A stretch of DNA of 64,000 bases from Candidatus Omnitrophota bacterium (lineage in GTDB: Bacteria; Omnitrophota; Gorgyraeia; B26-G9): positions 12,580 through 76,579 of the forward strand of contig JAHITE010000125.1 of assembly GCA_018817585.1 (NCBI GenBank). The letters are read 5' to 3'. Numbering within the stretch: position 1 is the stretch's first letter; each line of letters starts with the position of its first letter. Below, piece after piece: positions 20,476-58,403 of the stretch. A program made the translations under genes and the position numbers. Below the pieces are notes generated by a model. The model was not told the DNA's origin. It saw nothing but the letters and a program-made list of their open reading frames with translations, and did no database searches.

Positions 20476-20600
20476 GAGCAAAAATTCTCTTTGAGCGGCG
20501 CTTTTGAACGTAATTTTGACATTGATGTCAAAATAGTGAGAACGCGCGGCTGAGACTGCACGATGCAGGCTCAGGCTTAGCGAAAAGATGTGTTTTTGCG
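20476..20600 (+). repeat. ~125-nt conserved intergenic element (candidate structured RNA), copy 1, upstream of era
   Basis: gcaaaaattctctttgagcggcgcttttgaacgtaattttgacattgatgtcaaaatagtgagaacgcgcggctgagactgcacgatgcaggctcagg...; two hairpins; about 90% identical copies at 55033-55156 and 58279-58403. Confidence 0.75.
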
Positions 20601-20641
20601 TGATATACACGAAGCGATACGGGAAATAGAAAAGAGACCAA

Positions 20642-21556
20642 ATGAAAAAAGATAAAAATTTTAAATCAGGATATGTTGCTTTAATGGGTAAGCCGAATGT
20701 GGGCAAATCAACATTGCTAAATTGTTTTTTAGCGGAAAAATTATCAATTATTTCTGATAAGCCGCAAACAACACGTGACGCGATTTTAGGAATTCTCAGC
20801 GATGATCAAGCCCAGGTAATTTTTGTCGATACTCCGGGAGTTCATAAACCATTAACAGCTCTGGGCCAGCATATGGTCAGAAGTGCCTTGGGCGCGGCTG
20901 ATGACGCGGATATCGTAATTCTGATTATTGACGCGCAAAGCGGCATAACCAAAGCCGATCAGCATATATTTAAAACTCTTAAAGATAAAAAAATATCTGA
21001 GAATTGCCGATGGACAGCGGTATTGATAAATAAAATTGATTTAATTCCCAAAGAAAATATTCTGGCTTTGCTGGATTCCTGCAGCCGTCAAATATCTTTT
21101 GATGCCTATATTCCTGTTTCCGGAAAAACCAAAGAAAATTGCGCGTTAGTTTTAGAAAAAATAAAACAAGCCTTGCCTGAAGGGCCGGAGTATTATCCAA
21201 AGGATCAGTTAACGGATAAGAATGAACGATTTGTGGTGGCTGAACTTATTCGTGAACAGGTTTTACATTTGTGTCGAGAAGAAGTTCCTCATTCTGTGGC
21301 AGTTGAAGTGCATAAATTTGCTGATAATCCAGGTAGAAAAACTCTTATCCAGGCAACTATTTTTCTGGAAAGAGACGCGCAGAAAAAAATTGTGATTGGC
21401 AGTCAGGGGAAAATGCTCAAAGACATTGGTTCCGCGGCTAGAGCAAACATCGAAGAGTTTATTGGCAGAAAAGTTTTTTTGGAATTATGGATAAAAGTGC
21501 AGGACAACTGGCGAAAAGATGAAAGTTTTTTGCGGCGTTTAGGTTATGAAAAATAA
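20642..21556 (+). CDS. era: GTPase Era
   Basis: 304 aa; G1 GKPNVGKSTLLN, G3 DTPG, NKID, C-terminal KH domain. Confidence 0.95.
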   Translation: MKKDKNFKSGYVALMGKPNVGKSTLLNCFLAEKLSIISDKPQTTRDAILGILSDDQAQVIFVDTPGVHKPLTALGQHMVRSALGAADDADIVILIIDAQSGITKADQHIFKTLKDKKISENCRWTAVLINKIDLIPKENILALLDSCSRQISFDAYIPVSGKTKENCALVLEKIKQALPEGPEYYPKDQLTDKNERFVVAELIREQVLHLCREEVPHSVAVEVHKFADNPGRKTLIQATIFLERDAQKKIVIGSQGKMLKDIGSAARANIEEFIGRKVFLELWIKVQDNWRKDESFLRRLGYEK

Positions 21557-21576
21557 TCAACGCGTGATGATTTGTG

Positions 21577-21604
21577 TTGACATAGGGAAAACGCATTGTA
21601 AAAT
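21577..21604 (+). promoter_or_regulatory. sigma70-type promoter for the hydrogenase operon
   Basis: TTGACA - 16 nt - TAAAAT about 50 nt upstream of the small-subunit start. Confidence 0.5.
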
Positions 21605-21651
21605 AAAAATAAGGATTTCATATCTAATAGGGGATTGATAAGGAGGGGATC

Positions 21652-22572
21652 ATGAAACTTACCCGCAGACAATTCCTCAAGATCTTTGGGGCTTCAGCTG
21701 TTGGCGCGGGGATTACTAGTTTGTATAATCCGGCATTGGTTGAGGCTTTAGCGGCAGACGATGGCAAGCCTCCGGTTATTTGGATTCAAGGAGCCGGATG
21801 TAATGGCTGTTCAGTTTCACTTTTAAATACTGTTCATCCGAAAATTGCTGAAGTTTTATTACATATTATAAGTTTAAGGTATCATCCTGCGTTAATGGCT
21901 GGGACAGGGAAAACTGCTTTTGATGTTATTTATGAAGTAGCCGAAGAGTTTAAGGGCAAATATATCGTTGTTCTTGAAGGCGGCATCCCGACAGCGGAAG
22001 ACGGGGCTTATTGCACTGTCGGTGAATATAATGGCCGTCATGTTAAATTAACTGATCTGATTGATTTTCTTGTACCTAATGCTGCTGCTTTGGTTGCCGT
22101 AGGCGCTTGTGCTGCTTTTGGCGGAATTCCTAAAGGCAAACCTAATCCTACTGGAGTTAAAGGTTTTGCTGAATACACTGGGAAAACTGTAGTTAATGTT
22201 TCCGGGTGTCCAGTACATCCTGATTGGATTGTCGGAACTCTAGTTCATGTGCTGCATTATGGGATGCCTGAATTGGATAAGCATAATAGACCAAAATTGT
22301 TTTATGGTAAAAATCTCCACGATAATTGTCCTAACTATTCCTATTTTGCTAAAGGTAAATTCGCGGAAAAATTAAGTGATGATGGATGTTTGGTGAATAT
22401 TGGCTGTAAAGGGCCAATGACTTATGCTGATTGTCCTCTCCGGCATTGGAATAGCGGAGTAAACTGGTGTATCGGATCAGGAACAGGATGTATTGCTTGT
22501 ACTGAGCCGAATTTTCCAGATGCTGCTTCGCAGATGTACGCTAAGTTACCTGATGACATGATTCCTAGCTGA
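21652..22572 (+). CDS. [NiFe] hydrogenase small subunit, Tat-exported
   Basis: 306 aa; twin-arginine signal TRRQFLK; proximal cluster motif GAGCNGCSVSLL; further Cys ligands GCPVHP, CKGPMTYADCP, CIGSGTGCIAC. Confidence 0.9.
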   Translation: MKLTRRQFLKIFGASAVGAGITSLYNPALVEALAADDGKPPVIWIQGAGCNGCSVSLLNTVHPKIAEVLLHIISLRYHPALMAGTGKTAFDVIYEVAEEFKGKYIVVLEGGIPTAEDGAYCTVGEYNGRHVKLTDLIDFLVPNAAALVAVGACAAFGGIPKGKPNPTGVKGFAEYTGKTVVNVSGCPVHPDWIVGTLVHVLHYGMPELDKHNRPKLFYGKNLHDNCPNYSYFAKGKFAEKLSDDGCLVNIGCKGPMTYADCPLRHWNSGVNWCIGSGTGCIACTEPNFPDAASQMYAKLPDDMIPS

Positions 22573-22601
22573 ATAGTTTGACAAGATAAAAGGATGCGGC
22601 C

Positions 22602-24014
22602 ATGGCTAAACAAACCATAAGTATTGATCCAGTTACCCGAATTGAAGGGCATCTTAAAATAGAAGTTGATGTTGATAATGGAAAAGTTATTGATGCTCGT
22701 TCTATTGGAACGTTGTTCAGAGGTTTTGAAACTATATTAAATGGTAGAGATCCGAGAGATGCCCAGATGATAACTCAACGTATTTGCGGAGTTTGCTCGA
22801 TCAGTCATGGGATTGCGGCTACGCTGAATCTTGATTCAGCGTTTAATGTAAGTCCGCCATCAAATGGGCGGATTGTTCGAAATTTAATTCTGAGTGGTAA
22901 TTATATTCAATCGCACATATTGCATTTTTACCATTTGGCTGCGCTTGATTTTGTTACCGGCCCGGATGTCGCTCCGTTTATTCCCAGATATAAAGGGGAT
23001 TACTTATTGCCTAAAAAGGTTAATGACGCGGCAGTTGAGCATTATATGCAGGCTTTGGATATGCGAATGAAAGCGCATGAATTAACCGCTTTGTGGTCAG
23101 GGAAAGTTCCCATGGCGCAGTCGATAACTCCCGGCGGAGTTTCGCAAAAAGTATCGGTTGATAGAATTGCCTCAGCTTTATGGAGAATTCGTGAGCTTAA
23201 AGATTTTGTGAAAAATGTTTATATTTCCGATGTTTTAGCGGTTGCTGATGTATATAAGGATTACGGGACTGTGGGTGTTGGTTATAAAAACTTTCTTTCT
23301 TATGGAGTTTTTGCCGAGAACAATGAAAAAACAGAGTTTTTATTTAAATCAGGAATCTATACTGCGGATATTGATTTGGAAATGAACGCGCAAAAGATTA
23401 CTGAAGATGTTGAATTTTCCTGGTATAAAAAAGAAATTGGCAGAAAACATCCTGCTGAAGGGCAGACTGACCCTGATCTGCACAAAGAAAATGCTTATTC
23501 ATGGGTAAAAGCGCCTCGTTACGATGGTATCCCTCACGAAGTCGGCCCATTAGCTAGAATGTGGATCAATGGAGATTATCGAAAAGGCGCTTCGCTTTTA
23601 GATCGTCATGCGGCGCGTGCTTTGGAAACTCTCAAAGTTGCTGAGGCTATGGAAAAGTGGGTATTGCAGTTAAAGCCCGGTGAGCCGGTTTTTACTGCTT
23701 TTGAAATACCGGTTAATGCGGAAGGAATGGGTTTGACTGAAGCCCCGCGGGGTGCCCTTGGCCATTGGATAAAAATCGAGAATAAAAAAATAGCTAATTA
23801 TCAGGCGGTAGTGCCTTCCACCTGGAATTTAAGTCCAAAAGATGAGGATTTTCAGCGTGGTCCGGTTGAGGAAGCATTGATTGGCTGCCCTGTGCCGGAT
23901 GCGGATAATCCAATAAACGTAGCAAGAATTGTTCGTTCATTTGATCCTTGCCTTGCTTGCGCAGTTCATTTGACAAAACCAAATGGGGAAATGAAGAAAT
24001 TTAGAGTTTGTTAG
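22602..24014 (+). CDS. [NiFe] hydrogenase large subunit
   Basis: 470 aa; N-terminal RICGVCSISHG and C-terminal DPCLACAVH Ni-Fe ligands with a short tail after His, the substrate for the maturation protease. Confidence 0.92.
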   Translation: MAKQTISIDPVTRIEGHLKIEVDVDNGKVIDARSIGTLFRGFETILNGRDPRDAQMITQRICGVCSISHGIAATLNLDSAFNVSPPSNGRIVRNLILSGNYIQSHILHFYHLAALDFVTGPDVAPFIPRYKGDYLLPKKVNDAAVEHYMQALDMRMKAHELTALWSGKVPMAQSITPGGVSQKVSVDRIASALWRIRELKDFVKNVYISDVLAVADVYKDYGTVGVGYKNFLSYGVFAENNEKTEFLFKSGIYTADIDLEMNAQKITEDVEFSWYKKEIGRKHPAEGQTDPDLHKENAYSWVKAPRYDGIPHEVGPLARMWINGDYRKGASLLDRHAARALETLKVAEAMEKWVLQLKPGEPVFTAFEIPVNAEGMGLTEAPRGALGHWIKIENKKIANYQAVVPSTWNLSPKDEDFQRGPVEEALIGCPVPDADNPINVARIVRSFDPCLACAVHLTKPNGEMKKFRVC

Positions 24015-24050
24015 AACTAGATAGTTTAATCTTAATAATTTGGGTGTTTT

Positions 24051-24503
24051 TTGTTTAAAAAAATAACAATATTGGGAATCGGTAATTTATTACTCAAAGA
24101 TGAGGGTGTGGGGATTCACGCTATTGAGGCATTAAGAAAAGAATCGCTGCCTGATAATGTTGAGCTTGTGGATGGAGCGGCGTCAGGATTTGATTTATTG
24201 CCAATAATCGAGCAATGTGATAAGTTGATTGTAATTGACGCGATTAAGATTGCTGAACAGCCGGGAACAATATATCAATTCGACCCCAAGCAGATTGATG
24301 TTAAGCGAGATTTAAATATGTCTCTGCATGATGTTGACTTTTTTCAAGTGCTTGAATTTGCCAATAAACATCGGTGGTTGCCAGAGATATTGATGATCGG
24401 GATTGTTCCTAATGAGATTTGTTTAAGTATGGATTTATCTGATATTATTAAAGGGAAAATACCGAGGATTGTGTATTTAGTTAAGCAAGCAATAGAGAAT
24501 TAA
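24051..24503 (+). CDS. hydrogenase maturation endopeptidase (HyaD/HybD family)
   Basis: 150 aa; ILGIGNLLLKDEGVGIHAIE N-terminus typical of the family. Confidence 0.85.
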   Translation: MFKKITILGIGNLLLKDEGVGIHAIEALRKESLPDNVELVDGAASGFDLLPIIEQCDKLIVIDAIKIAEQPGTIYQFDPKQIDVKRDLNMSLHDVDFFQVLEFANKHRWLPEILMIGIVPNEICLSMDLSDIIKGKIPRIVYLVKQAIEN

Positions 24504-24540
24504 ACTTATATAACTATTATCTTAACAGTTTGAGAAGGGA

Positions 24541-25005
24541 GTGTTTTTTTTGAAAAAAATAATTATTTCAGGATTCATTTTGGGGGTTTTATTGATGTTT
24601 GATTATAATTATGCTTTGGCTCAACAAGATTCTCCAGCTAAAGATATTGCTTCTGAATATGTCGGGGTAGCGCAATGCGCTGTCTGTCACCCCGCGGAAT
24701 ATCAGGAGTATAACAAGCGTAAATTTAAGAAGGCCTGGCGGGTGTTAAAAATGCGTGGGGCGGAAAAAAATGAAATATGCTTAAAATGTCATGTGACTGG
24801 TTTTGGAAAAGGCGGATTTATTAGTGAAGAGCAAACCCCGCATTTAGTTGGTAAACAATGCGAAGCATGCCATGGTCCTGGTGGTAAGCATATAAGTAAT
24901 CCCTCTGACCAGAATTTTAGAAAACAGTTAAAAGTGGTTAATAAGCAAAACATATGTATAGAATGTCATACTTGTATGACAACTCATAAAACAAATGATT
25001 TTTAA
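24541..25005 (+). CDS. periplasmic tetraheme c-type cytochrome (cytochrome c3-like)
   Basis: 154 aa; signal peptide; four CxxCH motifs (CAVCH, CLKCH, CEACH, CIECH). Confidence 0.8.
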   Translation: MFFLKKIIISGFILGVLLMFDYNYALAQQDSPAKDIASEYVGVAQCAVCHPAEYQEYNKRKFKKAWRVLKMRGAEKNEICLKCHVTGFGKGGFISEEQTPHLVGKQCEACHGPGGKHISNPSDQNFRKQLKVVNKQNICIECHTCMTTHKTNDF

Positions 25006-25039
25006 TGAATTTTTAGTAATGAAAATATATGAAAATATA

Positions 25040-25068
25040 TTGACAGGAGTATTGATTTATGTTAAATT
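25040..25068 (+). promoter_or_regulatory. strong sigma70-type promoter of the OMP gene
   Basis: TTGACA - 17 nt - TAAATT; about 230-nt 5' UTR; RBS AAGGAGG before ATG 25302. Confidence 0.5.
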
Positions 25069-25301
25069 AGCACTATATGGAAAAATGCCGAGATTGAATA
25101 TTTTTTATAAGTAGCGGCTGAATTCATCATATATAACTTTAATCTGGCGACAAGGAGGTGGGGGAAAATAGAGCCTGAAGTTATAAGCATATGGTGATAA
25201 TGGAATAAGATAGAAATAACCTGGGCAACTATAGACAAACCTATAACTATAGACCTAGTTGGCCAAATAAATTTAAATTATTTTCTAAGGAGGAAAATAT
25301 A

Positions 25302-26621
25302 ATGAAGAGAATGCTAACAATTCTTTTAGCAGTAAGCATGATTGCGCTTGTGGCAATGCCTGCTTTTGCTGAAGTACAGAATATTAAAGTAAATGGCGGA
25401 GTTAAAATCACTGGTATTACTAGAGAAGGCTTTATTAATAGAGGACCAGCAGGATCTACTACCGGATACCCGGAAGCAGACTCGAGAGATTGGTACAACA
25501 CTGTTACTACTCTTGGTGTCGCGGCAGATCTTACTGACAATGTTTCAGCCACAATGGTATTAGGCAATGAAAGAGATTGGGGACTAGCTACTGCAACTAC
25601 TACTACTACTGGTGATGCTACTGCTGTTACTGTTTTTTCTTCTTACATTACTATGGAAGAAATGCTTTATTCAGCTTTAACAGTTAAAGCTGGTAGAATG
25701 CCGCTTGCTATTGCTGATAAATTAATTGTGGGTGATGGAACTGGTAATATTAATAGTCTTAATAGCGGTAACTTATCAGCCCAGACTGAATTTGATGCGA
25801 TCGTTGGTATTTTAGATTATGATCCATTAACAGTTATTTTGGGTACTGTAAAAGTATCAGATGAAGCACAGTCTGCTTCTGATGACGTGGATCTATATTT
25901 GGTTGATGGTATCTACAAGTTTGAAGATGACATGAACACAGTATTAGATGCTTATTTTGGAACAGCTCATTACAGTAGTCCTGGTGCTGCAACATTAACT
26001 GGTCCTGGTGCAAACAGCACAAGAACAGCTGATGTTAATGTTTTAGCAGCTGTATTGACCATGGAGCCAGCAGAACGCGTAACAGCTAAATTCGGTATTG
26101 GATATCAGTTTGGTGATTACCAGAAGACTGCAACAGCTAGCCGCGGTCTTGACGCAATGGCATTAGATCTTGGTGTAAATTACGCGATTGATAATGAATA
26201 TGCGCCTGTTGTTGGATTAAAATATGTATACCGTTCAGGTGATGACCAGGCAACTGGAGCTAATGCTGACTATACTGGATGGTTAGGTCTTTATGAACAA
26301 CAAATAAATGGTGCGATTTTTGATCCAAATACAAACATCAGCGCTTTTGCTTTAACAGCAACTGCAGTACCTGCTGATAGACTTACTATTGGTTTAGAGT
26401 ATTGGATGTTTACATTAGACGAATCATTGAAAACTGCTACTACACAATGCAGTACAAGTGATGAAGCTGGATCAGAGATTGATCTTACAGCATCTTATGC
26501 TTATACAGAAGATGTTAAGATTGGGCTTGGTCTTGGTTGGTTCTTCCCTGGGGATTATTATAAATCAGGGTTTGATGAAACAGCTATGCAGGCTTTAGTT
26601 CAAGTTGCTGTAAAGTTCTAA
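25302..26621 (+). CDS. outer-membrane beta-barrel protein (putative porin), highly expressed
   Basis: 439 aa; signal peptide MKRMLTILLAVSMIALVAMPAFA; alternating beta-strand pattern; Thr-rich loop; C-terminal VAVKF aromatic terminus; biased codon use. Confidence 0.55.
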   Translation: MKRMLTILLAVSMIALVAMPAFAEVQNIKVNGGVKITGITREGFINRGPAGSTTGYPEADSRDWYNTVTTLGVAADLTDNVSATMVLGNERDWGLATATTTTTGDATAVTVFSSYITMEEMLYSALTVKAGRMPLAIADKLIVGDGTGNINSLNSGNLSAQTEFDAIVGILDYDPLTVILGTVKVSDEAQSASDDVDLYLVDGIYKFEDDMNTVLDAYFGTAHYSSPGAATLTGPGANSTRTADVNVLAAVLTMEPAERVTAKFGIGYQFGDYQKTATASRGLDAMALDLGVNYAIDNEYAPVVGLKYVYRSGDDQATGANADYTGWLGLYEQQINGAIFDPNTNISAFALTATAVPADRLTIGLEYWMFTLDESLKTATTQCSTSDEAGSEIDLTASYAYTEDVKIGLGLGWFFPGDYYKSGFDETAMQALVQVAVKF

Positions 26622-26635
26622 GTTAATTAAATAAA

Positions 26636-26672
26636 AAGCCCTCGCTTCTTTTGGAAGCGGGGGCTTTTTTTG
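26636..26672 (+). terminator. rho-independent terminator
   Basis: AGCCCTCGCTTC-tttt-GGAAGCGGGGGCT followed by TTTTTTT. Confidence 0.85.
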
Positions 26673-26722
26673 CTAAAATATTTTCATTTTATTGAACTAT
26701 CGCGATATTAGGAATTTTATGC

Positions 26723-26751
26723 TTGACACTATCGACGTTTTTGAGTAATAT
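26723..26751 (+). promoter_or_regulatory. sigma70-type promoter of the chemotaxis operon
   Basis: TTGACA - 17 nt - TAATAT about 60 nt upstream of the mcp start. Confidence 0.5.
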
Positions 26752-26810
26752 GAACAATATCGCAACTTATGATTTCGCAGTTTGTTCAGTAAAAATATTA
26801 GGGGGGAGAA

Positions 26811-28520
26811 ATGTTGAAATTTTTGCCAAAAAATCTAGAGTTTAAGATTATTTTTTCTGTGGGCATAGCGTTATTTGTTGTATTAGGCATAAGTGCGGTA
26901 ATAAATATTTCAACCCAGTCTCGGATTCTGATTGAACAAGAAAAGTCGCTTGCTTCTATTTTAAGTGATAGTATTCTTAATGGTATTTTCTATCCCATGC
27001 TTGGTGGAGATCAGGCACTTGTCCAGACGGTCTTTAATTATTTTGCTTCACAAAAGCAAATAGATATGCTTTTTTTAGCGAATAATGAAGGAGAAATCAA
27101 GCGGTGCACATCTAATGAGTATTTTGGGAAAAAGATTGATTTTAGGGGTATTATTAGTGAAATTGAGTCTAAGGATAAAAGCACTAAGTTGCAAAAATTT
27201 AAAACAAGTAGCAGAAATCCAAATAAGAAAGTTTTTGCGACATATATCCCTGTTTATAATAATCCAGAGTGTAATTCTTGCCATGGTAAAAACACAAAAA
27301 TTTTAGGCCTTCTGGGGGTTGAACTGGAGTGGGATAATGTAAAAAAAGCAACTGCTGATACCTTAAACAGGGTATTGTTGATTGCATTGATTAGTATTTT
27401 TTTAATCAGTATTTTAGTTATTATTTTGCTTAGAAAACTAGTTATTAAACCAATTAATATTTTAGTAAAAGCGAGTGAGCCGGCAGTAAGAGGTGATTTA
27501 ACCATAACAGTAGATAATAATTCTGAGGATGAAATAGGTAAGCTCACAGTAGCTTATAACGCGATTATTAAAAATCTTCATAATATGGTAAGCCGGATTA
27601 AAGAATTAGCGGGAAAAGTTTCTAGTTTTGCCCAAGAGATTTCTACTTCTTCTAAAGAGATGAATGCTTCAACTCAGGAAATTTCTTCAACAATTCAGAA
27701 AATTGCTAAGGGGGTTACCACTCAGGCAAAACGAGTTGAAGATACCTCTCAGCTAATGGAAGGTTTGTCTGATTCAGTTCGTCGGGTTGCTGATAACGCG
27801 ACTTCCGCGACAAAGTCTTCAGAGAAGTCGCTTGAACAGGCGCAAAGCGGTGGATACGCTACTGCTGAAGCTGTAGAAAAAATGAATAAAATAACAACAA
27901 CAGTTTCCAATGCCGCGGCAGTAATCTCCTCATTAGGTGAAAAGTCTCAGCAAATCGGTCAGATTACTGAAACAATTACAAATATTGCTGATCAGACAAA
28001 TCTGCTTGCTTTAAATGCCGCTATTGAAGCAGCTAGAGCTGGAGATGCGGGTAGAGGGTTTGCCGTAGTTGCTGAGGAAGTTAGAAAGCTAGCTGAAGGA
28101 TCTGCTGAGGCAGCACGCCGAATTGGAAGTCTTATAAAGGGAATTCAGGTTGAAACTCCTAAAGCCGTAAGCTCGATAGAAGCTGGAACAAAAGAAGTTG
28201 CTGAGGGCGCTTTGATTGTTTCCCGGGTTTCAGATGCTCTTGCGGAAATTATTAACGCGGTCAGGACATCAGCGACTATGGTAGATGAAATTACTGAAGC
28301 TACTCAACATCAATTGGCTGCTTCAGAAAAAATAGTTAAAGCTGTTGATGAAGTAGCAGTTGTCGCAGAGGAATCAGCTTCCGCGACTGAAGAAGCTTCA
28401 AGTTCTGCCGAAGAACAAACTGCTTCAATGGAAGAGTTGACTGCTTCTGCTGAAGAATTAGCTCGTCTAGCTTTGGATCTCCAAGAACTTGTTGATAAAT
28501 TTCAACTAAATAAGAAATAA
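26811..28520 (+). CDS. methyl-accepting chemotaxis protein with a c-type heme-binding periplasmic sensor domain
   Basis: 569 aa; TM1, periplasmic domain of about 150 aa containing CNSCH (CxxCH), TM2, HAMP; signalling domain [34 protein letters not shown]. Confidence 0.92.
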
Positions 28521-28563
28521 AAATTGACTATTAATTTGTGTATTCAGTCAGGAGGCATAAAAA

Positions 28564-29067: not shown

Positions 29068-29096
29068 AGTAACTGAAAAGGAAGGAGCGTTTTAAG

Positions 29097-29471: not shown

Positions 29472-29529
29472 GTACTTAAAACACCACTAATTTTTCTTAA
29501 ATAATTAAATTAAGTAAGGTGTTTATAAT

Positions 29530-31689: not shown

Positions 31690-31704
31690 GAAGGATTTTA
31701 CTTT

Positions 31705-34354: not shown

Positions 34355-34362
34355 GAGAAAAT

Positions 34363-44455: not shown

Positions 44456-44646
44456 AAAACAGTCACAAAGACACAGGACACAAAGTAACAAGCATATTGC
44501 GTGAGAGATCGTAGGGGGGCTTGCCTCCTCCCGTAATTTGTCAATAATCAATATCCCATTTTTAATAAATTTATATTATCACGGGCCGACGCAAGGCCGG
44601 CCCCTACGTCAATGATATTTTTGGATTAACGCGATACGGAAATAAT

Positions 44647-45936
44647 ATGAATAAGTATGATGTTATTGTTATTGGCGGAGGCCCGGCAGGAATGATTGCC
44701 GCCGGAACCGCTGGTAAATTTAAAAAGTCAGTTATCCTTTTAGAACGGAATAATGTTTTGGGAGTAAAATTGCGGATTACCGGCAATGGCCGCTGCAATT
44801 TTACAAATAAAATGCCTTTGAATAGATTTCAAGATTATTATGTGGATAATCCGAAATTTTTGCATAATGCGTTTAATAAATTTTTTAATCATGATTTGAT
44901 TAAATTTTTTGAACTATTGGGAGTTAGAACCAAAGTTGAAAATAATGGCAGAGTATTTCCGCTAAGTGATCAGTCTGCTGATATTATTCAAGCTTTGGAG
45001 CTATATTTGCAAAATAATAAAGTTCAGGTCGCCTGTCGAAGTTTAGTAACTGATATTATTGTGGAAAATAATCAGGTTGCTGGGGTTAAACTATCCGGAG
45101 AGGAAACGGTTAAAGCCGGAAAAGTTATTATTGCTACTGGCGGTAAAAGCTATCCTAATTTGGGTTCTAATGGTTCAGCGTATTCATGGGCTTTGAAAAC
45201 AGGGCATAATATTATTCTACCCCGGCCCGGTCTTTCCGGCATTCAAATTAAAGAATTATGGGTGAAAGGACTTCAGGGGATTAGTCTGAATCAAATCGGC
45301 ATCAGCCTGTATGTGAACGCAAAGAAAAAAAAACAGATAAGCGCGGATTTGGTATTTGCCCATTATGGGATTTCCGGCCCAGGCGCGTTTGATTTAAGCG
45401 CTGATGTGGGAGATTGCTTGGTAAAGGGAAGCGTGGTTTTATGTTTGGACCTGTTTCCGGAAATTAATGAATCGCAGGTTATGGAAAAATTGGATGATAT
45501 AATTGCTAAAAGCCCGGGATGTATGTGCAAAAATCTGGCATTTAATGAAGTTCCGAAGAAGCTAATTGCTGTATGTCATGATTTAGCAGGTATTAACGCG
45601 AGTAAACCTCTAAGTCAGTTGAGTAAAAAGGAAAAAAGAAGCTTGATAAATATCTTTAAACAGGTACAATTAACAGTACAAAGCCTAAGGCCATTAAAAG
45701 AAGCCATGGTTACCAGAGGCGGAATCTCGGTTAAGCAGATAAACCCGGCAACCATGGAATCAAGAATTGTAAGCGGTCTGTATTTTTGTGGTGAGTTAAT
45801 TGATATTAGTGGACTAAGCGGAGGGTTTAATCTGCAAGCAGCGTTTTCTACTGGTTATTTGGCTGGGCTGGGAGCCGCGGTTGAGCCGAAAATAGAAGAT
45901 AGAAAACCGATGGATGAGGGACGATCGCTGCGCTAG
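44647..45936 (+). CDS. HI0933/BaiN-family FAD-dependent flavoprotein
   Basis: 429 aa; YDVIVIGGGPAGMIAA dinucleotide motif and GNGRCNFTN signature; last ~18 codons are encoded by the short repeat element. Confidence 0.8.
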   Translation: MNKYDVIVIGGGPAGMIAAGTAGKFKKSVILLERNNVLGVKLRITGNGRCNFTNKMPLNRFQDYYVDNPKFLHNAFNKFFNHDLIKFFELLGVRTKVENNGRVFPLSDQSADIIQALELYLQNNKVQVACRSLVTDIIVENNQVAGVKLSGEETVKAGKVIIATGGKSYPNLGSNGSAYSWALKTGHNIILPRPGLSGIQIKELWVKGLQGISLNQIGISLYVNAKKKKQISADLVFAHYGISGPGAFDLSADVGDCLVKGSVVLCLDLFPEINESQVMEKLDDIIAKSPGCMCKNLAFNEVPKKLIAVCHDLAGINASKPLSQLSKKEKRSLINIFKQVQLTVQSLRPLKEAMVTRGGISVKQINPATMESRIVSGLYFCGELIDISGLSGGFNLQAAFSTGYLAGLGAAVEPKIEDRKPMDEGRSLR

Positions 45937-45955
45937 GACGATGGATGAGAAAGCA
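45890..45955 (+). repeat. short GGAYGA direct-repeat element, copy B
   Basis: agaagatagaaaaccga-(GGATGA)(GGACGA)-tcgctgcgcta-(GGACGA)(GGATGA); overlaps the stop codon of the flavoprotein gene. Confidence 0.7.
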
Positions 45956-47150: not shown

Positions 47151-47161
47151 AAGGGTTTGGT

Positions 47162-47833: not shown

Positions 47834-47861
47834 TTTACTTGAATAAAAAAACAACGAAACT

Positions 47862-49556: not shown

Positions 49557-49793
49557 AGCAGTTAATAACCGCGCTGTCTTTGTTTTAAAAAGTATCTTAT
49601 TTTTAACTAAATTATTTATCCGCGTTTTTCGCTTAAAAAGTCCGCGCTAATCCTCTGGCAGTAAAAACAATAATTTGTTTAAATGAATAATATGTTGAAA
49701 TTAAAAGCATTATGATCGAAAAAATCTAAGTGTATATAGCAAAAATAGATATTTTATGGTATACTTTAGAATCTTTTTTAAAGACCTTTTTAA

Positions 49794-50060
49794 TGGTCTG
49801 AAAAAGATTTTGGCTTAAACACAAATCCTGCGCAAGTATATCCGGGACTTTGGGTTGGAAGCACTAAAGACGCTCTTTACGCGCAAAGATATGTCTTTGA
49901 TAGTATTCTCAATGTTGCTCAGGAGTTTGATCTTAAAATTTCTGAAGAGGACATTCTTGAAAGCGTGAAGTGGATTAAAAAACAACTTAATTTGGATAAA
50001 AAATTGCTTGTTCATTGCTGTGTAGGTATTGCCAGAGTAGTTTCAATTGTAATCGCGTAA
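49794..50060 (+). pseudogene. degraded dual-specificity (Cys-based) protein phosphatase gene
   Basis: Open frame with no start codon: SEKDFGLNTNPAQVYPGLWVGS...LLVHCCVGIARVVSIVIA*, with the HCxxGxxR (CX5R) P-loop. An ATG at 49793 is one base out of frame. A TAA cuts the expected A-Y-L/M-R-K continuation (A*YMRKIFRQV*) with further stops. A TGgTATACT extended -10 lies about 30 nt upstream. Confidence 0.5.
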
Positions 50061-50310
50061 TATATGCGCAAAATTTTTAGGCAAGTGTAGCTCAAATAAA
50101 AAGTGAAATAGTTCGAAATCTTAAGAAATATACTATTATACCGCAGAGAGCTCTGGAGCAAAGTCTTTTGAATTTGTTTCATGTTCCGGAGTTTATACAT
50201 GATACAGGAGCTCATATAGAGATGAAAACTAATAGGCTAATAAATCGAATGAGAAATAGTGTTGTTAGCGGGTATTTAGTATAAAAAACGGATAGGGTAT
50301 CAAAAATCTA

Positions 50311-52167: not shown

Positions 52168-52938
52168 AAACAGTGTGTAGCGTGTATTGTGGTAAATATG
52201 AATAAATCCTTTGAGATTGATAAGCGCAAGTCTTTTGAATTAAATAAGTTCTAACTTATCCTTCTGTTTTCAAAAAAATCTCCCGTTGATTTATCTGAGT
52301 TTTTGCCAAGCAAAGTAATTGTGACCTCTTGCTAAAATTATTACTTATGATGAGTTTTTGGCTAAAAACGGATCTTTAAAACCTTGGAGTATCTCTGCTA
52401 TAAAAAAAGAATAACATTACTTCTTTTGCGGTAGCTTTTATGGCTCATTCTTGAATAATGAGCCATAAATTACATAACTCAAGCAAAAAAAGATGATAGA
52501 TAAATTTTACGCTCAGTTATAAATTTTCTTGCGGTAAACCAGCAAGACCGGCAAACATAAACTGTGTTTTTGGCGCTGTGGAACTCACCCAGCTATGGCT
52601 GGGTTCAGACAGTCCTCGCGCCCAAAAGGGTTTCCAAAAACCCAATTTATATTTGCCTAAATTTATAAACGAGCTTAAAAATTCAATCATCATCTTTAGA
52701 AAAAGTCCACTTTATTTACGAAAGAACCGCTTTTATTAATAGTTCTATTTAATCTAGAGTGTTATTTCTCTTTGTTGTAACTGATTCCAATAAAAAAGTT
52801 TATAAAAATTAAACGCTTTACTCTAAGTATAAAATCATTGATTTTTACTCTAATTATAGTTATACTGAAAATAATATTTTATTCTTTTTTCAGAGTATAG
52901 AGCAGATATTAATTATTTAAAACACAAAGAGGATAACT

Positions 52939-53244
52939 ATGTTTATTATTGCGTACATTCTTGAAGGCATAGCCACGGTTTTAGGTCTGGCTTTGAGCAT
53001 ATACTATTATTTGCTTTTAGCCAGAGTATTGATCAGCTGGGTTAATCCTGATCCATACAATCAAATTGTGGTTTTTTTGCGTCAGATGACTGATCCGATT
53101 CTGGAGCCTTTACGCCGTGTGTTTTTGCCTTTAACAATGCAGATCAGAGTTGATTTGTCACCGATTCTTGCTTTTTTTATCATTGTTTTTCTGCAGAAAT
53201 CTTTGGTGGGAATGCTATTTCATATTGCCTATATGCTTAAATAA
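52939..53244 (+). CDS. yggT: YggT-family membrane protein
   Basis: 101 aa; ARVLISWVNPDP...TDPILEPLRRVF signature of YggT/Ycf19. Confidence 0.75.
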   Translation: MFIIAYILEGIATVLGLALSIYYYLLLARVLISWVNPDPYNQIVVFLRQMTDPILEPLRRVFLPLTMQIRVDLSPILAFFIIVFLQKSLVGMLFHIAYMLK

Positions 53245-53252
53245 GGGGAAAA

Positions 53253-54959
53253 ATGAAGAGCCCGAATAATATAATCAATAGACTGCTGGATTCAGTTATC
53301 GGAGTTGTCGGAGCCGCTTCTTTAGTTCTTTTGCTTATTGAGTGGGGAATGATGCCGATTATCAAAGGTATGGGGATTACCATGCTGGATAGAATTGATA
53401 ATATTGTTCTAGTAATATTTCTGCTCTCAGTTATCAGCCGTTTTATCAAATCTGAGTCAAAAAAAGAATATTTTAAGAATTACTGGATCGATCTTTTAGT
53501 ATTTGTTCCTTGTTTTTGTTTTTTTAAAGGAATTCATAACGCGAAGTTATTTCTTGTGATAAGAGAAGCGATTGTATTGTTTGGGTTTTGGCATAAGAAC
53601 AAGTTTTCCCAAAAGTTAATTAGTTTATTAGGCTTAAAACCAGCACATTTGCTGATAGCTAGTTTTATGATGACGATTCTGATCGGAACCTTTCTCCTTA
53701 CTTTGCCGATATCGACTCAGACCGGACAGGGTTTGAATTTTGTTGATGCTTTGTTTACTGCCACCTCCGCGACTTGTGTTACCGGGCTTATTGTGCGCGA
53801 TACAGGAACGTTTTTTTCTGGTTTTGGCCAGTTTGTGATTTTGGCTTTGATTCAGATTGGAGCTTTAGGAATAATGACATTTTCCGTAACTTTATTTTTG
53901 TTCGCGGGCAAACAAATGTCGAATAAGGAAGCAATGACTATGCAGGATGTTCTCGATCAGGACAGCCTTTCGGGAATAAGGGAACTGATTCATTTTATTG
54001 CTAAGATGACAATATTTGTCGAGTTGCTGGGAGCAATATTTTTGTATGTGGGATTTGAGCCTTATATCGCGGATCCCTGGCAAAGATTATACACCTCATT
54101 ATTTCACTCTGTTTCCGCTTTTTGTAATGCCGGATTTTCTTTGTTTAGCGATAATTTAATGCAGTATGTTAAGGATGATATTATTAATCTTACGATTGCT
54201 TTTTTAATTATTTTCGGCGGATTAGGGTTTATCGTAGTCAAGGATGTCTGGGGAAAATTTGTTAAAAAGGACCGGCCAAAAAGTTTAGGGCTTAAAGTCC
54301 ATACGAAAATTGTTCTTTCAATCACATTTTTTTTAATTCTCGCGGGAACAATCTGTATATTCTTCGCGGAAAATAACAGCGCTATTTTAAGCGGCATGAC
54401 TTTGAAGGATAAGATCTTAATTAGTTTTTTTCAGTCTGTTTCTACTCGAACTGCTGGTTTTAATACCATTGACATTGGGAAAATGGCCAATGCGAGTATT
54501 TTTAGTATGATTATTCTGATGTTTATCGGAGCCTCAGCTGGTTCAACCGGAGGGGGGATTAAGACAACCACATTTTGGATGCTGCTTAAATCATTTACCA
54601 GCAGCATGCACAGCAAAGATGATATTGATTCATTTAAACGCGAGATACCAAGAAGTATTGTGCAAAAATCCATGGCTATTTTCGTGTTGGCCTTGAGCTT
54701 TGTGATTATATTTATGTATTTAGTTTCTTTGTTTGAAAATTTAGCTTTTCGGGATCTGATATTTGAAGTGGTTTCTGCTTTTGGCACAGTTGGTTTATCT
54801 ACTGGAATTACGGCATCACTGCATTTGCCGGGTAAAATTCTAATAACCCTGCTTATGTTCTTAGGCCGGCTTGGCCCTTTGACAGTTGTTTTGGCTTTTT
54901 CCGGATATAAACAAAAAATAAATTACACCTTTGCCCAAGAAAAAATCATGGTAGGGTAA
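53253..54959 (+). CDS. Trk/Ktr-family K+ transporter membrane subunit (TrkH/KtrB) with N-terminal extension
   Basis: 568 aa; selectivity-filter-like TATSATCVTGL, SVSTRTAGFNT, GASAGSTGGGIKTTT, SAFGTVGLSTG; about 100 extra N-terminal residues with two TM helices. Confidence 0.85.
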   Translation: MKSPNNIINRLLDSVIGVVGAASLVLLLIEWGMMPIIKGMGITMLDRIDNIVLVIFLLSVISRFIKSESKKEYFKNYWIDLLVFVPCFCFFKGIHNAKLFLVIREAIVLFGFWHKNKFSQKLISLLGLKPAHLLIASFMMTILIGTFLLTLPISTQTGQGLNFVDALFTATSATCVTGLIVRDTGTFFSGFGQFVILALIQIGALGIMTFSVTLFLFAGKQMSNKEAMTMQDVLDQDSLSGIRELIHFIAKMTIFVELLGAIFLYVGFEPYIADPWQRLYTSLFHSVSAFCNAGFSLFSDNLMQYVKDDIINLTIAFLIIFGGLGFIVVKDVWGKFVKKDRPKSLGLKVHTKIVLSITFFLILAGTICIFFAENNSAILSGMTLKDKILISFFQSVSTRTAGFNTIDIGKMANASIFSMIILMFIGASAGSTGGGIKTTTFWMLLKSFTSSMHSKDDIDSFKREIPRSIVQKSMAIFVLALSFVIIFMYLVSLFENLAFRDLIFEVVSAFGTVGLSTGITASLHLPGKILITLLMFLGRLGPLTVVLAFSGYKQKINYTFAQEKIMVG

Positions 54960-55032
54960 AATAGCGTATAGCGATTAGCATTTAGGAAAAACATAAAGAG
55001 CTTAGCGGCTAATAGGTGATAGTCAATAGTTT

Positions 55033-55156
55033 GGCAAAAATTCTCTTTGAGCGGCGCTTTCGAACGTAATTTTGACAGGGATGTCAAAATAGTGAGAACG
55101 CGCGGCTGAGACTGCACGATGCAGACTCAGGCTTAGCGAAAAGATGTGTTTTTGCC
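55033..55156 (+). repeat. ~125-nt conserved intergenic element, copy 2, upstream of hemB
   Basis: About 92% identical to copy 1; hairpins TTTTGACA-ggga-TGTCAAAA and GAGACTGCA-cga-TGCAGACTC. Confidence 0.75.
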
Positions 55157-55277
55157 TGTAAAACAACTCTTTTTTTATCTTTGCTCGATATATCAGAGTT
55201 TAGCGGTTAGGAAAAGCGAATATAAAATGTCATAAGGATATAATTTATAATTGATGAGAATCTGAGGAGGAATAATA

Positions 55278-56333
55278 ATGTATTATCCGATTAAAAGATT
55301 AAGAAGATTGCGGAAAAATCATTTTTTGCGCGAGATGTTTAAGGAAACTGAGTTAAATGCGCGTTCTTTTGTTTATCCGGTTTTTGTGGTGGAAGGCCAG
55401 TCGATTAAGGATCCGATAGAATCCATGCCGGGCATGTTTAGAATGTCAGTGGATAATCTGCTTAAGGAAGTAAAAGAAGTAGAAGGACTGCATATTCCGG
55501 CAATAATGCTTTTTGGAATTCCGGAAAAGAAAGATGAAAGAGCAACCAGCGCTTATGCTAAAAACAGTATAGTTCAGGCCGCGATTAAAGCAATAAAGGA
55601 AAAATTCCCTAATCTTTTAATTATTACTGATGTTTGTTTATGCGCTTATACAACTTCCGGGCATTGTGGGATTGTGAAGAATATTATGGCCTCAACAAAT
55701 AATGAAACAGAAAAGGAAGAAGCTAATCCGGAAACAGGTAAGTCTAAGGAAATTGTTGTGTATAATGACGCGACATGTGAGCTTCTTGCTAAAATGGCGC
55801 TTTCCCACGCGGAAGCCGGCGTAGATATGGTTGCTCCCAGCAGTATGATGGATGGCCAGGTTTTGGCAATTAGAAAAGCTCTAGACGCGAATAATTTTAA
55901 ACATCTGCCGATTATGTCATATAGCGCTAAATTTGATTCCAGTTTTTATGGTCCATTTCGCGACGCGGCTAAATCATCGCCGGAATTCGGAGATAGAAAA
56001 ACCTATCAATTAAATCCGGCAAACGCGAATGAAGCAATGAAAGAAATTGAGCTGGATATTCAAGAAGGCGCTGATATTGTTATGGTTAAACCAGCCTTGG
56101 CTTATTTGGATATTGTAAGCAAAGCAAAACAGAATTTTGACTTACCCATAGCGGTGTATAATGTAAGTGGTGAATATTCCATGGTAAAAGCAGCGGCAGC
56201 TGCTGGACTGGTTGATGAAAAAGCAATTATCATGGAAATGCTGGTTTGCATGAAAAGAGCCGGAGCTGATTTGATTGTTACTTATCATGCTAAAGACGCG
56301 GCCAGATGGTTGAGTGGGAAATTTTTACTATAA
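55278..56333 (+). CDS. hemB: porphobilinogen synthase (ALA dehydratase), zinc type
   Basis: 351 aa; RLRRLRKN N-terminus, zinc site DVCLCAYTTSGHCG, Schiff-base lysine region; about 25-aa insertion KNIMASTNNETEKEEANPETGKSKEI. Confidence 0.93.
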   Translation: MYYPIKRLRRLRKNHFLREMFKETELNARSFVYPVFVVEGQSIKDPIESMPGMFRMSVDNLLKEVKEVEGLHIPAIMLFGIPEKKDERATSAYAKNSIVQAAIKAIKEKFPNLLIITDVCLCAYTTSGHCGIVKNIMASTNNETEKEEANPETGKSKEIVVYNDATCELLAKMALSHAEAGVDMVAPSSMMDGQVLAIRKALDANNFKHLPIMSYSAKFDSSFYGPFRDAAKSSPEFGDRKTYQLNPANANEAMKEIELDIQEGADIVMVKPALAYLDIVSKAKQNFDLPIAVYNVSGEYSMVKAAAAAGLVDEKAIIMEMLVCMKRAGADLIVTYHAKDAARWLSGKFLL

Positions 56334-56354
56334 ATATAGATCAAAAAGAAAGAT

Positions 56355-57377
56355 TTGATAATGTTGATTTCATGGAATATAACCAAAGCTTGTAATTTAG
56401 TGTGTGAACACTGCTATCGTGATGCTGGCGCTGCCCAAAAAGATGAGCTTACGTTAGAAGAAGGCAAAAAATTGCTTTTTGATCTAAAAGAACTTGGGTT
56501 TAAAATTGTTATTTTTTCCGGAGGCGAGCCGCTTTTAAGATCGGAATTATTTGATTGGATTAAGTACGCAAAGAGTTTAGGCTTGATCAGTGTTTTAGGC
56601 ACAAATGGAACATTACTTGATCTTGCTTGCGCCCAAAAACTAAAACAGGCTGGTCTTAAACGCGCGGGGATAAGTCTTGATTCTGTGGATCCGACCAGGC
56701 ATGATGCCTTTCGCTGTGTGCAAGGCTGCTGGCAAAAATCGATTGAAGGCATGAAACACTGCAAAGACGCGGGGCTGGAGTTTCAGGTGCATACTACAGT
56801 CACAACGAAAAATATAAATGAAGTTTTGGCAATAACTGACTTAGCCCAGGAGCTGGGGGCTGAAGCGCATCACATTTTTTTTCTAGTGCCTACCGGGCGA
56901 GGCAAAGATATTGATAATGTTATTCCTTCAGCCGCGGAATACGAACGTTTGCTCGGTGAGATTTTAGAAAAACAAAAATCAGTAAAACTGGAATTAAAGC
57001 CGGTTTGCGCGCCGCAGTTTATGCGGATTGCCGCGGAGAAAAAAATAAAAACTCGGTTTAATAAAGGCTGTTTATCCGGAGTGAGCTATGCTTGTGTCCT
57101 GCCCAATGGGGATGTTCATCCCTGTCCTTATATGCCGATTCATTTAGGTAATGTTCGGGAGCTGGGATTTAAGAAAATATGGCAAGAAAATAAAGTGCTT
57201 AATGATTTAAGAAAAATGGCGTGGCAGGGTAAATGCGGTATCTGCGAGTATAAAAAAATGTGTTCTGGCTGCCGGGCCACAGCTTATTTTCAAACAGGGG
57301 GCAATTATTTAGGGGAAGATACTAATTGTAATTATGAGCCAAAAAGAAAAAGAGATTCTCAAAGTATTGCAATCTGA
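56355..57377 (+). CDS. radical SAM/SPASM enzyme, probable heme synthase AhbD of the alternative heme pathway
   Basis: 340 aa; CNLVCEHCY CxxxCxxC cluster motif; C-terminal SPASM cysteines CGICEYKKMCSGC; context hemB - radical SAM - two NirDL-like genes. Confidence 0.65.
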   Translation: MIMLISWNITKACNLVCEHCYRDAGAAQKDELTLEEGKKLLFDLKELGFKIVIFSGGEPLLRSELFDWIKYAKSLGLISVLGTNGTLLDLACAQKLKQAGLKRAGISLDSVDPTRHDAFRCVQGCWQKSIEGMKHCKDAGLEFQVHTTVTTKNINEVLAITDLAQELGAEAHHIFFLVPTGRGKDIDNVIPSAAEYERLLGEILEKQKSVKLELKPVCAPQFMRIAAEKKIKTRFNKGCLSGVSYACVLPNGDVHPCPYMPIHLGNVRELGFKKIWQENKVLNDLRKMAWQGKCGICEYKKMCSGCRATAYFQTGGNYLGEDTNCNYEPKRKRDSQSIAI

Positions 57378-57780
57378 TTTTCCAATCATTGAAAATCCCT
57401 ATCAAGTGTTGGCCAAGCGTTTGGGGATTAGTCCTAAACAATTATTATTAAAAATAGAAAAATTTAAACAAAATAAAACTATCCGGAGAATCGGGGCGGT
57501 TGCCTCCGCCGCGCATTTGGGTTACAAAAGCATGCTGATCGCCGCGCGGGTTAAGCCTGAATCAGTGGAAAAAACCGCGGCTTTTATTAATTCCTTTGAA
57601 AATGTTACGCATAATTATCTGCGCAAAGCAGAATATAATTTATGGTTTACTTATAGCGCTAAGACAAGCAAGCAGATAAACAGTTTTATTGCTAAGATAA
57701 AAAAACTAAAGGGAGTAGAAGAAGTGCTGGTTTTACCAGCTACCCAGACTTTTAAAATAAAAGCGGAGTTTAAGTTTTGA
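57334..57780 (+). CDS. siroheme decarboxylase subunit (AhbA/AhbB, NirD/L/G/H family)
   Basis: 148 aa; Lrp/AsnC-like N-terminus EILKVLQSDFPIIENPY...IRRIGAV typical of NirDLGH/AhbAB. Confidence 0.6.
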   Translation: MSQKEKEILKVLQSDFPIIENPYQVLAKRLGISPKQLLLKIEKFKQNKTIRRIGAVASAAHLGYKSMLIAARVKPESVEKTAAFINSFENVTHNYLRKAEYNLWFTYSAKTSKQINSFIAKIKKLKGVEEVLVLPATQTFKIKAEFKF

Positions 57781-58250
57781 ATAAACTTACTGAATTGCAA
57801 AAGAATATATTAAACTTCTTACAGCAGGATATACCCGCTAAAGAACATCCTTATTCGGAAATAGCATTAGAGAATAATGTCGATGAAAAAACAATAGTCA
57901 GCCAGATTAAGCTACTAAAAAATATAGGATATATCCGAAGATTCGGCGCGATATTAGCGCATCATAAAGTGGGCTTAAAAGCCAATTGCATGTGTGTTTG
58001 GATTGTTCCTGAAAATAAAGTAAAAAAAATAGCTGATCGCGTGAAAAAAATAGCACAGATAAGTCATTGTTATTCGCGGAAAACCACAAAAAAATGGCCT
58101 TATAACTTTTATACAATGATTCATGGTCAGACAAAAAAACAATGCTTTGAAGTAATTGAATTTTTAGCTAAAACAGCTAAACTTAATGATTATCGCGTGC
58201 TTTTTACGGAAAAACAGTTTAAAAAAACCAGTCCGAAATACAGGGTTTAG
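57777..58250 (+). CDS. siroheme decarboxylase subunit (AhbB/AhbA, NirD/L/G/H family)
   Basis: 157 aa; paralogous architecture ILNFLQQDIPAKEHPY...IRRFGAI. Confidence 0.6.
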   Translation: MNKLTELQKNILNFLQQDIPAKEHPYSEIALENNVDEKTIVSQIKLLKNIGYIRRFGAILAHHKVGLKANCMCVWIVPENKVKKIADRVKKIAQISHCYSRKTTKKWPYNFYTMIHGQTKKQCFEVIEFLAKTAKLNDYRVLFTEKQFKKTSPKYRV

Positions 58251-58278
58251 CATTTAGGGTGTAGGGTTTAGAATTTGG

Positions 58279-58403
58279 GGCAAAAATTCTCTGCGAGCGG
58301 CGCTTTCGAACGTAATTTTGATAAGGATATCAAAATAGTGAGAACGCGCGGCTGAGCCTGCACGATGTAGGTTCAGCCTTAGCGAGAAGACGTGTTTTTA
58401 CCT
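58279..58403 (+). repeat. ~125-nt conserved intergenic element, copy 3, upstream of hemL
   Basis: About 88% identical to copies 1 and 2; both hairpins retained through compensatory changes (TTTTGATA-agga-TATCAAAA; GCTGAGCCTGCA-cga-TGTAGGTTCAGC with G-U pairs). Confidence 0.75.

Follow-up and report, generated by a model that had tools for sequence, protein, structure and literature searches.

Among the structured repeats of bacterial intergenic DNA, the ERIC, bcr1 and Correia families are transcribed, have predicted RNA folds and affect the expression of their neighbors (PMC3184786). Here we describe an element that joins this group, found in 64,000 nucleotides of DNA from Candidatus Omnitrophota bacterium (assembly GCA_018817585.1, contig JAHITE010000125.1, positions 12,580 to 76,579 of the forward strand; hereafter, the window). 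It is a non-coding repeat of ~127 nt that is dispersed through the intergenic regions of a narrow Omnitrophota clade, and the window carries canonical copies upstream of era, hemB and hemL. To our knowledge, the non-coding DNA of the Omnitrophota, which are uncultivated, is essentially undescribed; our literature search found no paper on Omnitrophota intergenic repeats, and the element is a structured repeat in a phylum without one described before.

The bcr1 repeat of the Bacillus cereus group (~155 bp), which resembles the MITEs (miniature inverted-repeat transposable elements), makes a TTTAT target duplication. Like the Omnitrophota element, it is short, non-coding and bounded by terminal inverted repeats, occurs in multiple intergenic copies, lies near genes and is likely co-transcribed with them. 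Its predicted RNA is "cruciform-like", with a closing stem and two independent stem-loops (PMC3184786), the same topology as stems P1, P2 and P3 of our element, although the two share no sequence similarity and come from different phyla. The ERIC/IRU repeats of the Enterobacteriaceae are almost equal in length to the present element (~127 bp) and are imperfect palindromes. Their copies occupy transcribed intergenic regions in either orientation, and they differ in presence or absence at orthologous sites between related species. ERIC-type sequences have terminal inverted repeats, vary in abundance among related genera and bear a TA motif at both termini (PMC3184786). ERIC forms one long hairpin, whereas our element forms a three-way junction without a flanking motif, and the two show no sequence relationship.

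The Correia (NEMIS) repeats of Neisseria are dispersed and MITE-like too, and they often lie 5' of genes. They produce TA duplications, and RNase III cuts the stem formed by their terminal repeats. Insertion differences between close strains have been taken as evidence of their mobility, and they carry promoters and an IHF site (PMC3184786); the element described here, in contrast, has no promoter-like site in consensus scans. REP/BIME and REPIN-RAYT sequences share with it an extragenic location, hairpin formation, strand asymmetry, the lack of a target duplication, rarity between divergent genes and a tendency to make up mosaics with the other repeat modules of an intergenic region. REP units are single hairpins of 20-40 nt with a conserved 5' tetranucleotide, present in hundreds of copies. 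The Omnitrophota element is instead a 127-nt three-way junction, with roughly 10-30 copies per genome and no RAYT gene seen.

The repeat in the window and its predicted fold

A find_repeats search of the window returned a single 141-nt family, the only long repeat family present, with copies 91% and 81% identical to the reference. The three copies are 127-129 nt each and align over ~127 nt with sharp ends (81-91% identity). Each was matched by nhmmer with an E value of 1e-45 to 1e-46, the rest of the window being without a comparable match, and covariance model R1 scored them at 139-150 bits. All three are canonical (A-type) and on the + strand: copy 1 (20475-20603; 142.9 bits) lies 38 nt 5' of the start codon of era, copy 2 (55031-55159; 149.9 bits) 118 nt 5' of hemB, and copy 3 (58277-58405; 139 bits) 43 nt 5' of hemL. 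An earlier note on this DNA had reported look-alikes of ~125 nt at these places, with two inverted repeats each, ahead of era, the hemB-ahbD-ahbAB operon and hemL. Repeat search, nhmmer and covariance model agree on the copies, the two inverted repeats are present in all three, and the downstream genes are as named: in the Pfam tables of the syntenic loci, era corresponds to KH_2/MMR_HSR1, hemB to ALAD, hemL to Aminotran_3, ahbD to radical SAM/SPASM and ahbA/B to two NirdL-like/AsnC genes. The shared + orientation of the copies carries little information, because nearly all genes of the window are on that strand.

As RNA, each copy is predicted to fold into the same closed three-way junction at -47 to -53 kcal/mol, 4-5.5 standard deviations below shuffled sequences (copy 1, -47.4 kcal/mol, z -4.1; copy 2, -52.8 kcal/mol, z -5.5), while the reverse complements fold 9-10 kcal/mol more weakly. 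The fold comprises a closing stem P1, an arm P2 with the UUUUGACA hairpin at its tip, and a GC-rich hairpin P3, connected by junction strands of 1/0/3 nt. According to the consensus fold and pair counts, the 5' strand of P1 in copy 2 (GGCAAAAAUUCUCUUUGAGC, 55033-55052, +) pairs with the 3' strand (GCGAAAAGAUGUGUUUUUGCC, 55136-55156, +). The resulting imperfect 19-bp stem with one bulge, GGCAAAAAUUCUCUUU(GA)GC / GC(GA)AAAGAyGUGUUUUUGCC, appears at the DNA level as terminal inverted repeats, the element ends reading GGCAAAAATTCTC...GTGTTTTTGCC; in some copies its tandem G-A/A-G is swapped for U-A/A-U. The P2 arm (55054-55103, +, in copy 2) consists of GCGC-UUUC..GAGAA-GCGC, capped by AUUUUGACA-NGGA-UGUCAAAAU (tip hairpin, 55069-55090). 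Of 31 canonical copies, 30 retain the loop GGA, preceded by U, G, A or no base at all, and window copy 1 has UUGA where others have NGGA. The P3 hairpin (55104-55132, +) is GGCUGAGnCUGCA-CGA-UGCAGnCUCAGsC.

This architecture matched no Rfam family, in agreement with the earlier note. Rfam 15 gave no hit at gathering thresholds over the whole window and none overlapping copy 2 at E<=10; for two further members of the family described below (the D-type and truncated composite members), there were only chance hits (mir-7386, snoRNA models, Bacillaceae-1, DUF805b) at 11-20 bits, against gathering thresholds of 35-75. Hammerhead, twister and 5S-like three-way junctions were also considered, and the 1/0/3-nt junction strands misfit a hammerhead core.

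An open reading frame (ORF) runs through copy 1 on the minus strand (20407-20706). Protein coding was rejected, because a frame of ~42 codons is expected by chance in one of the six frames and because the substitutions are pair-compensating rather than synonymous. Similar mechanical ORFs cross the element elsewhere (locus L011, 628-873, +; locus L015, 6143-6304, -), and the peptides, which resemble one another, read ..WQKHxFSLxLSLHRAxSAARSHYFD..VKITFESAAQREFLP. Such frames are a likely source of spurious "hypothetical protein" annotations.

Compensatory changes and the folded strand

The earlier note had observed that copy 3 is altered on both arms of its repeats with pairing retained, and the copy alignment and the consensus fold bear this out. 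Copy 3 is a member of a subfamily whose P1 and P2 tip bear compensated changes; in its P2 tip, TTTTGACA/TGTCAAAA has become TTTTGATA/TATCAAAA (GACA/TGTC to GATA/TATC); its GCTGAG-CTGCA stem has gained two G-U pairs and one G-C pair.

The same pattern was supported when the alignment was expanded. Among 33 members fitted to the covariance model, standard pairs fill 91.5% of cells, compared with 34-47% when the partners are slid by 1-3 columns, and both sides have changed at 21 pairs. None of 500 shuffles reached the observed values; two D-type rows contribute much of this signal. A separate MAFFT alignment of 13 copies has 7 doubly changed cells, against 2.0 ± 1.2 expected.

Departures from the majority pair in the 31 canonical copies are also strongly asymmetric: G-U accounts for 49 cells at 17 pairs, and A-C for 9 cells at 8 pairs. 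Since G-U far outnumbers A-C in copies on either coding strand, the bias belongs to the element, and the folded strand is the element's own + strand. A strand-specific mutation bias was considered as the source of the G-U excess and set aside on the same grounds, although shared ancestry of the variants limits this test. These observations support the view of the element as a folded single strand of nucleic acid, with selection maintaining the pairing.

Dispersed copies in related genomes

The earlier note had proposed looking for further copies in the rest of the genome and in related metagenome bins. We searched genome and metagenome collections with one exact 19-mer taken from the P2/P3 junction. 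It occurs at 9 sites in the Omnitrophota metagenome-assembled genome (MAG) JAHITY01, assembly GCA_018817165.1, and at 3 in JAZDHZ01, in addition to three chance hits in high-GC taxa, and at 32 metagenome loci, nearly all of them from two samples. After removal of duplicate contigs, 40 distinct copies with differing flanks were obtained, and a covariance model built on 13 copies recovered all canonical ones at 116-153 bits. The window belongs to a third genome, distinct from both MAGs, with syntenic genes ~87% identical in DNA sequence to those of JAHITY and ~77% to those of JAZDHZ. No copy was found in viral contigs (searched with two patterns), plasmids or phages, nor at two more distant Omnitrophota loci (L050, L055), and a second covariance model that included the D-type detected no further divergent members in 444 kb.

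Across genomes with genes 75-90% identical, copies match the family consensus at 90-97% identity, and paralogous copies are 90-97% identical from end to end, unlike riboswitch paralogues. Their neighbors are unrelated: besides era, hemB and hemL, they include argH, larC, a PIG-L-type gene, tgt, aroE, rpoD and a glycosyltransferase gene. Where the two flanking genes run in the same direction, 19 copies are in sense and 5 in antisense orientation; three copies are flanked by convergent genes, and no copy is flanked by divergent ones. Overall, about a fifth to a third of the copies are antisense to their neighbors, the G-rich (coding) strand bears 28 of 41, and many of the sense copies end 11-55 nt before a start codon.

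In six matches at 5 loci (e.g., among L020, L022, L031, L036, L038 and L041), the contig stops within the element, which is expected when a sequence is repeated. The element breaks MAG assemblies, and its copy number is therefore probably underestimated.

Gain, loss and inversion at orthologous sites

Comparison of orthologous intergenic sites showed that copies have been gained, lost and inverted. Upstream of hemL, the window has a sense copy, whereas locus L052 has a full-scoring copy in the inverted orientation (6081-6209, -), 30 nt from the start codon, and L026, L048 and L050 have none; the hemL spacer measures 75 nt without a copy in L026 and 198 nt in the window. The copy upstream of hemB is shared by the window and JAHITY (L009/L026) and absent from L048, L050 and L052, even though the HemB protein of L048 is 91% identical. 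The era copy is shared with JBPKSV (assembly GCA_054043625.1; L054, 9791-9919) and absent from JAHITY (L053), L055 and L056. Ahead of the gene at 44647, the sequence of the window differs from that of L005, which carries a copy there, and the argH site is occupied by a canonical copy in L001 and by a composite in L006.

This distribution, of dispersed copies gained, lost and inverted at orthologous sites, is that of a non-autonomous repeat that moves or recombines. The earlier note had held that covariation is not expected of a mobile element; here, dispersed, polymorphic and inverted copies coexist with a covarying fold. Its link to era and to heme (tetrapyrrole) genes did not hold either. 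The unrelated neighborhoods of the 40 copies, together with orthologous sites that are empty or inverted, rule out a heme- or era-specific role, and the element is no dedicated regulator of era or of tetrapyrrole synthesis.

Sequence subfamilies and a composite form

The family comprises at least two sequence subfamilies, canonical and D-type, as well as a composite form. Three canonical copies in the window were correctly counted in the earlier note, which missed two further members. One is a divergent D-type member at 13826-13954 (+), 56 nt 5' of aroE, which is matched by the full R1 model at 35 bits (E 2e-6) and has a predicted fold of -46.5 kcal/mol (z -4.7). The other is a truncated composite at 13662-13792 (-), in which a diverged 5' arm (GGTAAAATTTATCTTTGAACGGCGCTTT) is followed by an insert module of ~100 nt and the 3' half is missing; it matches composites in L002, L006 and L008 at 85-89% identity (blastn/nhmmer).

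The D-type retains the P1-P2-P3 design with about half the bases of the canonical type, most stem positions being changed on both sides. It has retained AGCGG at the 5' junction, the hairpin AUUUUGAyA...CAAAAU and a P3 loop containing GA, while its P3 stem sequence is replaced with pairing kept. It presents GGA in two loops ~45 nt apart, where the canonical type has one GGA loop. The aroE copy of the window has orthologues in L053 and L056 and is absent from L054, where leuA and aroE abut; a paralogue lies 5' of tgt in L036, beside a canonical copy. Between the window and L053, the aroE D-type copies are near-identical save for four swapped P3 pairs (UCCCGCA/UGCGGGA versus CCUUACA/AGUAAGG), so that the P3 stem has been replaced, with pairing kept, while 98% of the rest is unchanged. 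The L036 and L053 copies differ by one further compensated pair.

In the composite, the P2 tip is replaced by a two-hairpin module of ~100 nt that is also found alone, and GGA is in no predicted loop. Composites occur at six distinct loci, and it is far more likely that the form was copied as a unit than that the same nested insertion happened six times. Repeats at orthologous sites are mostly conserved as much as, or more than, the flanking coding DNA: the truncated composite is identical to its L053 counterpart at 60 of 60 positions in one 60-nt block (window 13680-13739), and the D-type alignment blocks are identical at 53 of 60, owing to the P3 swap.

At one site 5' of the aroE D-type copy, three genomes hold three different family members, all in minus orientation. 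Opposite the truncated composite of the window (13662-13792, -), L053 has a full, diverged composite (~3590-3800), while L056 has a near-canonical copy (124-253, -) with yet another P3 stem, GACCGC/GCGGUC. This arrangement suggests replacement by recombination between family members.

Boundaries and flanking DNA

Conservation ends at P1. Outside it, information in the flanks is mostly <0.5 bit and never exceeds 1.0, apart from a weak, subfamily-specific extension of ~10 nt on each side. Scans with sigma-70 and terminator consensus sequences, which may not be those of the host, gave nothing above shuffled expectation. There is no terminator-like site in or after any of the three window copies, whose 3' flanks are not conserved, and no expression platform sequestering a Shine-Dalgarno (SD) sequence was found. 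An all-against-all comparison of the locus ORFs for a partner gene yielded housekeeping paralogues only.

Discussion

Our preferred explanation, which we consider probable, is that the element is a non-autonomous structured repeat of the MITE/ERIC/bcr1 kind, with a + strand fold (RNA or single-stranded DNA, ssDNA) under selection, co-transcribed with its neighbors and without a heme-specific role. It would spread by transposition in trans or by recombination and gene conversion between copies; mobilization in trans might proceed via ssDNA, given the absent duplication and the strand asymmetry. Selection would act on the folded + strand, either as ssDNA during mobilization or as RNA after co-transcription. 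Sense copies situated 11-55 nt from a start codon leave no room for a promoter and would therefore be transcribed in the neighbor's mRNA, as part of the 5' untranslated region or of an intercistronic spacer. There, by analogy with ERIC, Correia and bcr1, the three-way junction would most plausibly be a determinant of mRNA processing or stability.

Several observations weigh against this explanation. A scan of 35 copies for target-site duplications of 2-8 nt (offsets -3 to +5 at the 5' end and -6 to +15 at the 3' end) gave only trivial internal matches, and the element is therefore no classical MITE of the DDE type. Over ~550 kb of locus sequence, neither a transposase nor any other recurring gene lies beside the copies, and no longer element with matching ends was seen, mobility being deduced from the distribution of the copies. 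Moreover, copies are still 92-96% identical between genomes whose coding DNA is only ~77% identical; since this exceeds what the neutral decay of a dead transposon would leave, the element must either have a function at the level of the host or have spread very recently. The sequence of the element would thus appear to be held by selection, whether for propagation or for a host-level role. Finally, judged from sequence, the RNA and ssDNA forms of the folded strand are indistinguishable.

A more specific version of the preferred explanation is that the element is what remains of an HUH (Y1) transposase system, or a satellite of one, of the REPIN/RAYT or IS200/IS605 PATE type, with its hairpins recognized on one DNA strand during replication. 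Such a mechanism would account for the missing target-site duplication, for strand-specific hairpins that tolerate G-T and not A-C, for an orientation biased to one strand, and for its clustering with, and nesting in, other repeat modules of the same intergenic regions. However, no Y1/RAYT gene was found beside the copies in the ~550 kb of locus sequence, and there is no conserved tetranucleotide in the 5' flank. The orientation bias is only about 2:1, and a closed three-way junction with terminal inverted repeats is unlike the subterminal hairpins of IS200/IS605 or a simple REP hairpin; overall, we give this mechanism a small but appreciable chance. The copies might also be genes for small RNAs, or RNA modules that serve to recruit an RNA-binding protein or to titrate it, with a CsrA/Rsm-type protein as the candidate, and so control the neighboring mRNA or act as a sponge. 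The consensus selected in vitro for CsrA is RUACARGGAUGU, with GGA in a hairpin loop (PMC7652899), and the P2 tip, (G)ACA-NGGA-UGU(C), holds its invariant ACA, GGA and GU; the near-constancy of the loop GGA despite the variable base before it, and a primary sequence conserved across genomes well beyond the needs of pairing, are in line with such a role. Antisense copies and those at convergent sites are, in addition, compatible with independent transcription. Nevertheless, the composite has spread to its six loci without the P2 tip and its loop GGA, copy 1 of the window departs from NGGA, and the loop is at least 100 nt from the downstream SD sequence. The P2 stem, at 9 bp, is longer than in typical CsrA sites; most selected hairpins have four contiguous pairs or fewer, and a very stable structure has been suggested to be a possible disadvantage (PMC7652899). 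No consensus promoter or terminator accompanies the element, and tblastn with E. coli and B. subtilis CsrA queries detected no csrA in 553 kb, a small part of the genomes; overall, we regard this possibility as unlikely.

The earlier note had favored a structured, transcribed RNA leader. Its structural half, a structured single strand with selected pairing, stands; its other half, a cis-regulatory leader of the riboswitch or attenuator kind by which era, hemB-ahbD-ahbAB and hemL would answer a common signal, is largely refuted by the inverted and absent copies. A stable, conserved sense-strand fold does lie 38-118 nt 5' of the three genes, most copies elsewhere are also sense and near a start codon, and the window has its hemB copy in common with JAHITY and its era copy in common with JBPKSV. 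But the downstream genes across the family share no pathway, 5 of the 24 copies between co-directional genes are antisense and three sit between convergent genes. At the hemL site the element is inverted in one relative and missing from three, close relatives lack the hemB and era copies, the paralogues are near-identical along their whole length, and neither a terminator nor an SD-sequestering platform was found; we thus hold a gene-specific leader to be quite improbable. More improbable still is a duplex-DNA site for a dimeric protein, with the palindrome TTTTGACA-N4-TGTCAAAA serving as an operator or nucleoid-protein site. That palindrome, with two perfectly matching 9-bp arms around a 4-bp spacer, has a sequence conserved between the canonical type and the D-type, yet it forms a single arm of a larger structure, in which the other stems covary while their sequences are not conserved and P3 is replaced outright in the D-type. 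The composite disrupts it, and the strand-specific asymmetry between G-U and A-C is not expected of duplex DNA. There is also some slight chance of a bolder interpretation, in which the element is a mobile, protein-recruiting RNA module (a CsrA-type hairpin, with two GGA loops in the D-type, and a P3 that is hypervariable in sequence yet always paired) that rewires post-transcriptional control genome-wide by inserting beside genes, or else belongs to a new class of structured RNA or ssDNA able to catalyze or guide its own spread. A constrained function fits the data, because conservation across genomes is strong and because the D-type P3 was exchanged while nearly all the rest remained unchanged.

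Whatever its function, the family provides a clean case of a structured repeat with sharp bounds and real covariation, whose copies can be followed at orthologous sites as they are gained, lost and inverted. It may serve as a marker of strain-level genome dynamics and is a known cause of contig breaks in MAG assembly. It also calls for caution in pipelines for riboswitch and small RNA discovery, in which it would receive a score as a covarying "leader". Should the fold affect mRNA stability or recruit a protein that binds RNA, the family would show a repeat spreading a post-transcriptional signal.

Other repeated sequences in the same DNA

A 64-nt repeat (AAAACAGAAGACAGAAAACCGAAGGATGATGGACGATCGCTGCGCTAGGACGA...) occurs twice in the window, at 20294-20357 and 45889-45952, with 91% identity, and straddles the 3' ends of the genes at 19081-20295 and 44647-45936. 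In L008, L010 and L011, segments of this repeat are found again at ~100-170 nt from the three-way-junction element, and the repeat may be a frequent companion module of the element. Quasi-periodic runs of 6-8 nt words (e.g., tagcgattagcgaatagcg, ttatgaattactaattatgagttacgagt, ataaagtttataaagttcataaagt, cataattcataattcataatt and gctaatagtcgatagtcaatgg) fill the intergenic DNA at 54960-55030 and 58251-58278 of the window and in flanks in L001, L005, L011, L012, L014 and L036. Runs of the gctaatagtcgatagtcaatgg type are found within 40 nt upstream of 13 of 35 element copies.

Immediately 5' of the gene at 44647, the window has a long inverted repeat (44456-44646), CGTAGGGG(GGCTTGCC)...(GGCCGGC)CCCCTACG, around an AT-rich segment, with a predicted folding energy of -33.5 kcal/mol; there was no second copy of it among the DNA compared. 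Two segments of ~750-770 nt each, at 49557-50310 and 52168-52938, are without an ORF of at least 80 amino acids, and the latter is partly conserved in L009/L026, L048 and L052.

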